Shown in pieces: positions 61,352-63,030 of a stretch of 64,000 bases of DNA. Source of the stretch: Escherichia phage PSD2002. The stretch is taken from sequence record OK335775.1; one strand, 5' to 3'. A program made the position numbers and the translations under genes. The notes under the pieces were generated by a model. It was not told the origin of the DNA, made no database searches, and saw only the letters and a list, made by a program, of their open reading frames with translations. Numbering within the stretch: the first letter of the stretch is position 1; each line of letters starts with the position of its first letter.

Positions 61352-61525
61352 ACCAAATTTGACCAGACTATTCCTAAAAATAGTAATATGCTTTAAGAGT
61401 AATGTGTTATTATTACTCTATCATTAATACCCTCTATTACCAAAGGTTCTTCCCTCAAAGAACCTTTCATAATAGACAAGGTCTATTAATCAAACTTACT
61501 TTACTTAATTTTATTTGAGGTGTTT

Positions 61526-61792
61526 ATGTTAGTATTAAAATTAGCTTTTTATGACCCGGCAACCAAGACAACAACAACCAAACGTTGTTCTATTTCATAT
61601 GAATGTCAATTTGGTGAAGTTGAGACCGACGGCGGGCCCTTTATGGCAATTGCCGATAGCACATTCGCTAAACCAAAAATAATTCCACTAGTTAACGCTG
61701 CGGCTTATCTGGTTGCTCCTGAAGAAATGACTTATCACACAATTCAGCACATGGCTAAAGATGATAATGCTCCTGCTGGATTTGTAGTTTAA
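61526..61792 (+). CDS. hypothetical protein (88 aa)
   Basis: Track ORF 61520..61792 begins at GTG; ATG at 61526 follows GAGG. Confidence 0.5.
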   Translation: MLVLKLAFYDPATKTTTTKRCSISYECQFGEVETDGGPFMAIADSTFAKPKIIPLVNAAAYLVAPEEMTYHTIQHMAKDDNAPAGFVV

Positions 61793-61797
61793 ATTAA

Positions 61798-61874
61798 GGC
61801 CCTGTAGCTCAATGGTTAGCAGCAGTCCCCTCATAAGGGAAAGGTTACCAGTTCAAATCTGGTCCGGGTCACCA
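61798..61874 (+). tRNA. tRNA with CAU anticodon (Ile2 or Met), non-canonical D-stem
   Basis: Hand fold: acceptor GGCCCTG/CCGGGTC (one mismatch, one G-U), anticodon loop CTCATAA, T-arm ACCAG-TTCAAAT-CTGGT, encoded CCA. Confidence 0.6.
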
Positions 61875-61879
61875 ACTAT

Positions 61880-61954
61880 GTCCCGCTGGTGTAATGGATA
61901 GCATACGATCCTTCTAAGTTTGCGGTCCTGGTTCGATCCCAGGGCGGGATACCA
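61880..61954 (+). tRNA. tRNA-Arg (anticodon UCU)
   Basis: Hand fold: acceptor GTCCCGC/GCGGGAT, D-loop AATGGATA, anticodon loop CTTCTAA, T-arm CCTGG-TTCGATC-CCAGG, encoded CCA; T4 also encodes a tRNA-Arg(UCU). Confidence 0.75.
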
Positions 61955-62335
61955 AATGAAGACTATTATATAGTCAAGCCGTCGTATGAAGACTGATTAC
62001 CAGCATTCACCGGCGCAACAAACAAGAAACCGGGTCGCTACCGGTAAGTCGTCGGACTGATGTTCCCTGAGTAAGGACTGGCATTAACAAATCTTTACGA
62101 TCTGTTAACGTTCCCTTACATCACAGCAGAAACGGCGCACCGAATTATCGATTCGAGGAAATATCTTTGCCGTAAGCCGAGTAGCGTTTTTGACGGAACG
62201 TTCGGATATGGTCGAGATATGGCCTTTTAAAAATATTGAGTGGCGTCAACTACTTAATAACCGGGTTCGAATCCCGGCGTTTCGTACAAACACTTGCCTA
62301 GCAGGTGGAACCCCGACAAGGTTACCCTAGGTTAA
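61955..62335 (+). ncRNA. candidate stable small RNA(s) with tRNA-like T-arm (position of T4 rnaC/rnaD); boundaries uncertain
   Basis: About 380 nt with no ORF over 24 codons, immediately after tRNA-Arg and ending at a terminator; contains CCGGG-TTCGAAT-CCCGG at 62261-62277 and a possible 7-bp acceptor pairing 62194-62200 with 62278-62284. Confidence 0.3.
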
Positions 62336-62336
62336 A

Positions 62337-62364
62337 GGCCCTTCCGAAAGGTTGGGCTTTTTTT
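62337..62364 (+). terminator. terminator GGCCCTTCCGAAAGGTTGGGC + T7 (variant of the repeated element)
   Basis: GC stem plus T-run; copy of the motif at 16963 and 62980. Confidence 0.55.
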
Positions 62365-62365
62365 G

Positions 62366-62373
62366 TATAAATA
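62366..62373 (+). promoter_or_regulatory. late promoter TATAAATA upstream of internal-protein-like gene 4
   Basis: Exact TATAAATA 26 nt before the ATG at 62400. Confidence 0.5.
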
Positions 62374-62399: not shown

Positions 62400-62864
62400 A
62401 TGAAAACTTACAATGAATTTTTGACTGAACAATCTAGTTCAGATGTAAAAGCCGCTGCTATTGCAGCAATTCAAGCAGGTAAATATTCTTACAAAGACGC
62501 CTCTGATGAAGAACGTTTCCGTTTTATTAAAGATTTTAAAGCCGAAGGTTTTACTAATGCTAATACTGTTAGCCGAGTTTTTAAAAGCCTAGCTGCATCA
62601 GGTGAATTGTTCCAGAAAGCTACAGGTAAAGCACCTGCGTCAAAAGCGGACCCTAAAGCCGCTCAAGAAAAAAATATCGCCAAAGGAATTATTTCTAAGT
62701 ATGAAGCAATTCTTAAAGAGCTTTTAGTAATCAAAACAGAAGGCCAGAAACTGGCACGAGCACATAGCTTCAAAGATAATCCACATGCTCACGACTTAGA
62801 GTATGTTGAAGATATTCAGAAAATCATCAAAGACCGTATCTGGTCTGCTAAACAAATCAAATAA
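62400..62864 (+). CDS. internal-protein-like gene 4 (MKTYNEFLTEQ...)
   Basis: Capsid-targeting-like N-terminus with L-T-E gp21-type site; late promoter. Confidence 0.65.
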   Translation: MKTYNEFLTEQSSSDVKAAAIAAIQAGKYSYKDASDEERFRFIKDFKAEGFTNANTVSRVFKSLAASGELFQKATGKAPASKADPKAAQEKNIAKGIISKYEAILKELLVIKTEGQKLARAHSFKDNPHAHDLEYVEDIQKIIKDRIWSAKQIK

Positions 62865-62888: not shown

Positions 62889-62979
62889 GGTTAACTTAGA
62901 GAAATATATGAAACTTTTAAAATAAAGCTATGTTAGCCTTCCACATAAACCCATTCCGGTTCTACAAGAACTGATTCTA

Positions 62980-63007
62980 GGCCCTTCCGAAAGGTTGGGC
63001 CTTTTTT
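62980..63007 (+). terminator. terminator GGCCCTTCCGAAAGGTTGGGCC + T6 (repeated element)
   Basis: Identical to the element at 16963. Confidence 0.6.
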
Positions 63008-63030
63008 GTTTCTAAAAAGTTTAAAAAGTT

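Follow-up and report, generated by a model that had tools for sequence, protein, structure and literature searches.

Gene order at the end of the tRNA cluster

We analysed a window of 64,000 nucleotides (nt) from Escherichia phage PSD2002 (OK335775.1) and focused on the stretch that follows its tRNA-Arg gene. This stretch, from 61955 to 62366, is very probably the non-coding 3' end of a small tRNA operon, comprising a 67-nt truncated rnaD-like element, the small RNA genes rnaD and rnaC, a trailer hairpin and an intrinsic terminator. BLAST searches of phage records matched the 751 bases around it to Escherichia phage QL01, a Dhakavirus of the Tevenvirinae, at 99.2% identity, and the long open reading frames (ORFs) nearby lie on the + strand only. 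In the whole 64 kb, ARAGORN identified two tRNA genes and no more, tRNA-Met and tRNA-Arg(TCT), and Rfam at gathering thresholds returned the same two tRNAs and no further family. The features are arranged as follows.

61798..61874, + strand: tRNA-Met (CAT), upstream in the same tRNA cluster (ARAGORN; Rfam tRNA, 50.9 bits)
61880..61954, + strand: tRNA-Arg (TCT) with encoded CCA, the left boundary of the finding (ARAGORN; Rfam tRNA, 48.8 bits)
61955..62021, + strand: 67-nt insert, candidate truncated rnaD paralog ("rnaD-prime") (model alignment, topology and seed similarity)
62022..62142, + strand: rnaD ortholog (T4 species II RNA) (homology to RB3 and T4 rnaD; covariance model; RNAalifold)
62143..62147, + strand: A/U-rich spacer AAUUA between rnaD and rnaC, a presumed processing site (T4 homology)
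62148..62286, + strand: rnaC ortholog (T4 species I RNA), 139 nt by T4 homology (homology, covariance model and fold)
62291..62307, + strand: trailer hairpin CACUUGC-CUA-GCAGGUG, conserved in T4, T6 and RB3 and kept in rnaC-deleted relatives
62336..62366, + strand: intrinsic terminator GCCCUUCC-GAAA-GGUUGGGC followed by U7 (fold)

The first-pass annotation had described a non-coding, tRNA-like stretch between tRNA-Arg and a terminator and had related it to the position of rnaC and rnaD in phage T4. Both boundaries were confirmed, since tRNA-Arg(TCT) ends at 61954 according to ARAGORN and Rfam and a hairpin with U7 occupies 62336-62366. The correspondence to T4 was established directly, since the annotated genes of T4 and RB3 are homologous to this stretch. 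In the RB3 record matched by BLAST (AJ884578), rnaD (870-990) and rnaC (997-1136) directly follow tRNA-Arg, and in the T4 RefSeq genome (NC_000866) the order is tRNA-Arg, rnaD (71053-71171) and rnaC (70908-71046), with 6 nt between the two annotated RNAs. BLAST and alignment placed rnaD and rnaC after tRNA-Arg in the same order and on the same strand in the window. Thus, the feature is real, was correctly interpreted and is already known, and the window contributes no new kind of element.

rnaC and rnaD are small stable RNAs of T4 that have been known for about 50 years, since the 1970s. In T4 they accumulate late as discrete stable RNAs, and RNAC was confirmed by Northern blot (PMC9697503); their roles are still unknown (PMC3014915, PMC9697503). 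In T4, the primary transcript of the cluster extends through it and terminates beyond species I RNA (PMC2330249). When a T4-like phage adapted to a semi-permissive host, a convergent single-nucleotide polymorphism (SNP) in rnaD was reported (PMC12685909). Neither rnaC nor rnaD is annotated in the QL01 genome record.

rnaC folds into a four-way junction with a tRNA-like top half

rnaC of the window is the direct ortholog of T4 rnaC, with the same order (tRNA-Arg, rnaD, rnaC, terminator) and strand, and nothing essential differs between the two. The sequences aligned with 2 differences in 141 nt, and identity to the RB3 rnaC feature was 98.6% by BLAST. Among 749 matching phage records, 683 were at least 95% identical, and the rnaC covariance model (R1) scored 163 bits in the window. 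Homologs were collected from GenBank phages of Kanagawavirus, Karamvirus, Moonvirus and Tegunavirus and from IMG/VR, by pattern scan and by neighbouring protein, giving 25 distinct sequences, 22 of which entered the RNAalifold consensus.

The consensus fold is a four-way junction composed of an acceptor-like stem (P1), a long arm, a 10-base-pair (bp) arm and a T-arm. The minimum free energy (MFE) structure of the single window sequence is the same fold (-49.9 kcal/mol, z = -4.25). Over the 25 distinct sequences, 94.7% of the alignment cells at the rnaC pairs were paired, compared with 37-44% in slid controls, and compensatory changes occurred at 29 of 51 pairs; none of 500 shuffles reached the observed values. 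The covariation analysis across relatives that the first-pass annotation had called for therefore supports conserved folds, for rnaC and, as described below, for rnaD. The parts of rnaC are listed here.

62149..62155, + strand: 5' strand of P1, CGAUUCG, pairing with CGUUUCG at 62278-62284 with two U.U mismatches; the acceptor-like stem
62156..62225, + strand: long arm of 70 nt in the D-arm position, with a base AGG/CCU (62156-62158/62223-62225), an irregular helix and an apical hairpin with the loop UUUGACGG
62190..62195, + strand: kissing-loop strand UUGACG, complement of CGUCAA at 62244-62249
62234..62259, + strand: 10-bp arm in the anticodon-arm position (62234-62243/62250-62259) with the 6-nt loop CGUCAA (62244-62249)
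62261..62277, + strand: T-arm CCGGG/UUCGAAU/CCCGG, directly abutting the 3' strand of P1
62285..62289, + strand: 3' tail U-ACA-A; U + ACA/UCA/CCA + A in the family alignment, at the discriminator/CCA position of a tRNA gene

In P1, an A-U pair is replaced by G-C in 11-14 sequences, and phage phiR1-RT has a perfect stem (CAGUCCG/CGGACUG). The partner of 62278-62284 favoured by covariation is therefore the 5' end of rnaC, 62149-62155. The 7-bp acceptor pairing proposed in the first-pass annotation, 62194-62200 with 62278-62284, does exist in the sequence with one G.U pair. This helix, which joins rnaC positions 46-52 and 130-136, was rejected as a conserved one, with 0 compensatory changes in 22 homologs and all shuffles scoring at least as high. 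The 5' strand of this helix falls within the rnaC apical hairpin, namely in its loop and 3' strand.

The long arm showed compensatory changes at 12 of 15 and at 3-4 of 5 pairs, and in clades L008/L021 and L048-50 its sequence differs and its architecture is the same. An A-rich linker joins the long arm to the 10-bp arm, where 7 of 10 pairs carried compensatory changes. The T-arm that had been noticed at 62261-62277 is present and belongs to rnaC; its stem covaries (CCTGG/CCAGG and CTTGG/CCAAG in relatives), with compensatory changes at 2 of 5 pairs. In the T4 annotation, rnaC ends with ...CGUA.

The terminal loops of the long arm and of the 10-bp arm, UUGACG and CGUCAA, are exact complements, and all six pairs of this kissing contact were formed in all 25 distinct rnaC sequences. 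Moreover, two independent compensatory events were found at different positions, UUGAUG with CAUCAA in the phiR1-RT clade and UUGGCG with CGCCAA in L048-50. The covariance model that built the rnaC alignment did not include the kissing pairs. The fold with its kissing loop has no entry in Rfam, and no description was found in the literature searched, the primary papers of the 1970s-80s being outside that scope. A scan of IMG/VR with a pattern of kissing loop plus T-loop returned the known T-even group and 7 random matches that had no tRNA context, and a loop-agnostic pattern in metagenomes returned 43 loci, none of which was rnaC by the covariance model.

rnaC is thus a cloverleaf-like four-way junction that keeps the top half of a tRNA, namely an acceptor-like stem, a T-arm and a U/NCA tail. 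It shares with canonical tRNAs (Rfam RF00005, clan CL00001) a 7-bp terminal stem abutting a 5-bp T-stem with the 7-nt loop UUCGAAU, the U + NCA tail, the four-way junction and a place in tRNA clusters with tRNA-like spacers. A tRNA-type terminal acceptor stem with an abutting T-arm is therefore found in rnaC, as P1 and the T-arm, and both covary. Unlike a canonical tRNA, rnaC has neither a D-arm nor a 7-nt anticodon loop; in their positions stand an arm of 70 nt and one of 10 bp whose loops are mutually paired, the consensus terminal loop is 6 nt, and tRNA models do not score it.

An acceptor/T-arm mimic set on another RNA body and recognised by tRNA enzymes is also found in the tRNA-like domain of transfer-messenger RNA (tmRNA), in bacterial and phage YrlA RNAs and in plant-virus tRNA-like structures, and rnaC shares this concept. 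It differs from the tmRNA domain, the Y-like YrlA RNAs and the plant-virus structures in being a four-way junction with a kissing loop and in having no tag reading frame. Additionally, ARAGORN detected no tmRNA, and neither tmRNA nor YrlA was matched in Rfam at E values up to 10.

rnaD is a rod with invariant end modules and a variable apical hairpin

rnaD of the window is about 87% identical to T4 rnaD; the two share their fold, and their 5' and 3' modules are identical. The rnaD covariance model (R2) scored 146 bits in the window. In most of 735 matching records the identity was 80-99%; it was below 80% in 39 records and at least 95% in 60. The 5' and 3' modules are invariant among relatives, and three unrelated versions of the central/apical hairpin occur between them, one of which, the "window-type", is carried here.

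According to RNAalifold, the 5' part consists of a 7-nt leader and a hairpin, H1 (62029-62033/62041-62045), with the loop GUCGCUA. A closing stem of 7 bp follows (62048-62054/62133-62140, GUCGUCG/CGGCG-C-AC), leaving a 2-nt tail, and encloses a rod with an asymmetric C-rich internal loop (UCCCUG/CACA) and then the variable apical hairpin. Over 28 distinct sequences, 95.4% of cells were paired, compared with 32-47% in slid controls, and 14 of 24 pairs showed compensatory changes. The tail after GCGC-A varies among relatives (CCA in T4, CCG in the window, and CAG, AAC or ACA), which fits 3' trimming followed by CCA repair as a possible maturation route.

Apart from the window-type apical hairpin, two differences from T4 were observed. 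The tail is ACCG in the window and ACCA in T4, and rnaD of the window is parted from tRNA-Arg by the 67-nt element, whereas the gap in T4 is 1 nt. The start of rnaD 1-2 nt after the CCA of tRNA-Arg, as in T4, T6 and RB3, is therefore not found in the window. Adjacency to tRNA-Arg is not essential to the rnaD family, because other relatives carry whole ORFs in between. Divergent rnaD-like RNAs were detected with the covariance model in Moon (directly after tRNA-His), L010, L048-50 and the Kanagawaviruses.

Five nucleotides of the H1 loop (CGCUA) complement UAGCG at 62181-62185 in rnaC, and a near-copy, UGGCG at 62240-62244 in rnaC, would pair with the same loop through one G.U. All these sites are nearly invariant, so covariation cannot address such a contact. 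Some phages have rnaC alone and some have rnaD alone, which makes an obligatory rnaD-rnaC interaction less likely.

A 67-nt rnaD-like element separates tRNA-Arg from rnaD

The 67-nt insert is absent from T4, T6 and RB3. It was found in 26 phage records, all of them QL01-type Dhakaviruses; covariation was unavailable because all 26 copies are 98.6-100% identical. It consists of a leader (AAUGAA), a hairpin (61961-61966/61970-61975), AA, a closing stem (61978-61984/62011-62016) and a tail (AACAA). This leader-hairpin-AA-closing stem-tail topology is that of rnaD, and the MFE is -16.4 kcal/mol (z = -3.06).

Within 9 kb, the rnaD covariance model matched no non-self sequence better than the insert, which aligned end to end (9.3 bits, E = 0.21), with 24 nt replacing 76 central model positions. 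A collinear chain of exact seeds shared with rnaD (CGTCG, GACTGAT, CAGCA and CGGCGCA) had p ~0.03, and generic local alignment of the two was not significant, 332 of 2000 shuffles scoring as high. The insert also has AAGCCGUC...GGCGCAACA in common with the rnaD-like RNAs of Kanagawaviruses, and its AAGCCGUCG...CGGCGCAACA agrees with hallmarks of those RNAs. Family membership would entail a significant model match including the core, and only the terminal modules and the topology match. We therefore classify the insert as an rnaD-like remnant and not as a family member.

As to its origin, we lean towards a truncated rnaD paralog. It is possible, if somewhat doubtful, that 61955-62021 is instead an indel scar of the tRNA-Arg/rnaD junction that resembles rnaD by chance. 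The E value of 0.21 and the p value of ~0.03 are weak statistics for a paralog, the conserved rnaD core CCCUG/CACA is missing, and ORFs of about 80-115 codons have been inserted at exactly this junction in phages G29, PYps32T, Aplg8, PTK and MN01. A scar does not readily account for an end-to-end model alignment that exactly fills the gap between tRNA-Arg and rnaD, for the rnaD-like topology with its low z score or for the hallmarks common with Kanagawavirus RNAs, and the insert shows no similarity to the inserted ORFs.

A duplicated motif, ATGAAGACT, that had been noted in the insert does occur at 61956 and 61986. Its frequency is at the level of chance: the surrounding 1.5 kb contains 7 direct repeats of 9-mers, and at least 2 matches were obtained in 16 of 100 window shuffles.

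The tRNA-Arg/rnaD junction is an insertion hot spot. The junction ORFs of PTK, PYps32T, G29, MN01 and Aplg8 (about 80-117 codons) come from several genera. In T4 and T6, the homing endonuclease gene segB lies one gene upstream of the junction.

Distribution and loss of rnaC and rnaD

In Moon, Karam, Kanagawa and Tegunavirus phages, rnaC-like or rnaD-like RNAs are located directly between or after tRNA genes. The rnaC-like RNAs of Moon and Karam phages lie amid tRNA genes with tRNA-type spacers; in Moon, 6 nt separate it from tRNA-Met on the upstream side and about 8 nt from tRNA-Gly on the downstream side. The Tegunavirus and Karamvirus loci have rnaC-like RNAs and no rnaD match there.

The Dhakaviruses vB_EcoM_005, IME341 and CLBP2 have lost rnaC cleanly, with the joint at 62144/62289, and C6 and MN01 also lack it; in all five, rnaD and the trailer/terminator are kept. 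From these separate losses and the loci with one RNA only, it follows that rnaC and rnaD are independent accessory modules of tRNA clusters. Each is missing from viable relatives, and any function must therefore be accessory.

In the Mosigvirus AV115 (positions 553-640 of locus L052), the 5' part of a tRNA-Asn is fused at the T-loop to the 3' end of rnaC, so that the 3' part consists of the rnaC 3' end and the trailer. This chimera implies that recombination, presumably mediated by the T-loop, removed tRNA-Arg, rnaD and most of rnaC.

A search of complete E. coli genomes with 61955-62290 revealed no similarity and no long complementarity at BLAST sensitivity, indicating no obvious host homolog or antisense target.

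Possible function

By analogy with T4, the RNAs of this phage would be co-transcribed with the tRNAs, possibly from a MotA-box-like site near 61387. They would then be excised by tRNA-processing enzymes of the host (RNase P or RNase E), presumably with cleavage between rnaD and rnaC at the AAUUA spacer (62143-62147). After 3' trimming and possibly CCA repair, they would accumulate as stable species.

We tentatively suggest, as one uncertain option, that rnaC and rnaD could bind, as stable tRNA mimics or decoys, those proteins of the host that recognise the acceptor/T-arm half of tRNAs, in a host-dependent and dispensable role. In line with this guess, the sequence of rnaC is extremely conserved, even in its loops, its "anticodon" end is masked, both RNAs are dispensable, and a SNP in rnaD arose in host adaptation (PMC12685909). 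A fuller version is more speculative still, and we consider it unlikely as a whole. Here, rnaC would be a purpose-built acceptor/T-arm mimic with its "anticodon" end permanently masked by an intramolecular kissing loop, and rnaD, a rod with a CCA-type tail and a C-rich internal loop, would belong to a second such family. Both would serve as accessory host-range decoys titrating a host factor that recognises tRNAs, either an enzyme of tRNA processing or modification or a defence nuclease directed at tRNAs. Meanwhile, QL01-type Dhakaviruses would express a third, minimal rnaD-like RNA from 61955-62021.

Several points weigh against the interpretation offered here. The RNA ends in the window were transferred from the T4 annotation, and alignments fitted to a covariance model lean toward the modelled helices, the kissing pairs being absent from the model. 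The kissing contact could be intermolecular, as covariation cannot distinguish pairing within a molecule from pairing between molecules. In addition, some viable relatives lack rnaC and some lack rnaD.

Among other explanations, decay is improbable. The interval would then consist of decaying tRNA pseudogenes and a 3' untranslated region, and its structure would act in cis only, as a processing spacer or a block to 3' exonucleases. Its setting in tRNA clusters, its dispensability in several relatives and the chimeric tRNA-Asn/rnaC joint of AV115, a sign that the region recombines and decays, would suit such a view. However, rnaC is more conserved than its neighbour rnaD, since 683 of 749 records versus 60 of 735 show at least 95% identity, and its loops and linkers do not vary. 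Moreover, compensatory changes maintain an elaborate tertiary contact, and both RNAs are discrete and stable in T4 (PMC9697503).

An unusual or long tRNA in the 3' half (about 62193-62286), built on the internal acceptor pairing, for example a 94-nt tRNA-Lys(ttt), is very improbable. That pairing is formed in 86% of alignment cells, one deposited record, of phage vB_EcoM_G29, annotates a 94-nt tRNA-Lys(ttt) over the same sequence, and the best weak Rfam match in the interval is an alignment to tRNA-Sec (62193-62285). The score of this match, 16.6 bits, is far under the threshold of 47 bits, and up to E = 10 the interval gave chance-level Rfam matches only (tRNA-Sec, isrK and others). Neither ARAGORN nor RF00005 at its gathering score called a tRNA within 61955-62335, in agreement with the remark in the first-pass annotation that the stretch could not be folded by hand into canonical tRNAs. 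Moreover, the internal pairing shows no compensatory change, 500 of 500 shuffles scored at least as high, and it breaks in the phiR1-RT, L008/L021 and L048-50 clades, whereas the 5'-terminal partner covaries. Its 5' strand, 62194-62200, sits inside the covarying apical hairpin and kissing loop, and the proposed tRNA would have neither a 7-nt anticodon loop nor a D-arm.

The G29 annotation (positions 566-659 of locus L031) covers rnaC positions 45-138 and is almost certainly a mis-call arising from the T-arm and the non-conserved internal pairing.

The chance that the interval encodes a small protein is negligible: the statement that no ORF exceeds 24 codons holds for ATG starts and fails for a TTG-started frame of 46 codons (62190-62330) and a minus-strand frame of 34 codons, so that such a frame exists mechanically, but neither frame shows any sign of coding, the substitutions among homologs are base-paired compensatory pairs with no codon pattern, the TTG-started frame crosses the RNA end into the trailer, and the T4 counterpart of the interval is a stable RNA that has itself been sequenced.

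What this analysis adds to the known RNAs is a corrected acceptor stem, folds supported by covariation, the kissing loop, a candidate third element and the distribution of the families. The four-way junction and kissing loop of rnaC and the rod of rnaD provide concrete, testable models, with bases to mutate and natural variants to compare. The natural rnaC deletions and the divergent family members in the tRNA clusters of five other genera offer material for comparison. Additionally, annotation errors are flagged, as the RNAs are unannotated in QL01-type genomes or have been called a 94-nt "tRNA-Lys".

Transcription signals and flanking regions

A consensus scan detected no sigma-70 promoter within the interval. 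The only late-promoter motif nearby, TATAAATA, starts at 62366, after the terminator, and the only nearby motif resembling a MotA box of middle promoters is at 61387, where TATGCTTTA is followed after 12 nt by TATTAT (61387-61420). These promoter motifs are consistent with co-transcription of the RNAs with the tRNAs, as described for T4 (PMC2330249). The terminator at 62336-62366 was missed by a consensus terminator scan owing to two U.U mismatches in its hairpin.

Downstream of the MotA-box-like motif, at 61444-61470, there is a strong hairpin (AAAGGTTCTT...AAGAACCTTT) with no U-run. An ORF of 90 amino acids (61520-61792), a hypothetical protein in QL01, is located between trna.2 and tRNA-Met, with the MotA-like motif and the hairpin upstream of it.

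The terminator (AGGCCCTTCCGAAAGGTTGGGC plus a T-run, 31 nt) is repeated 643 nt downstream, at 62979-63009, with 97% identity. The two copies bracket a cassette with an ORF of 154 amino acids (62400-62864). In the T4 and T6 records this ORF is not found after the rnaC terminator, and it thus has the appearance of a cassette gene that was inserted between two copies of a duplicated terminator.

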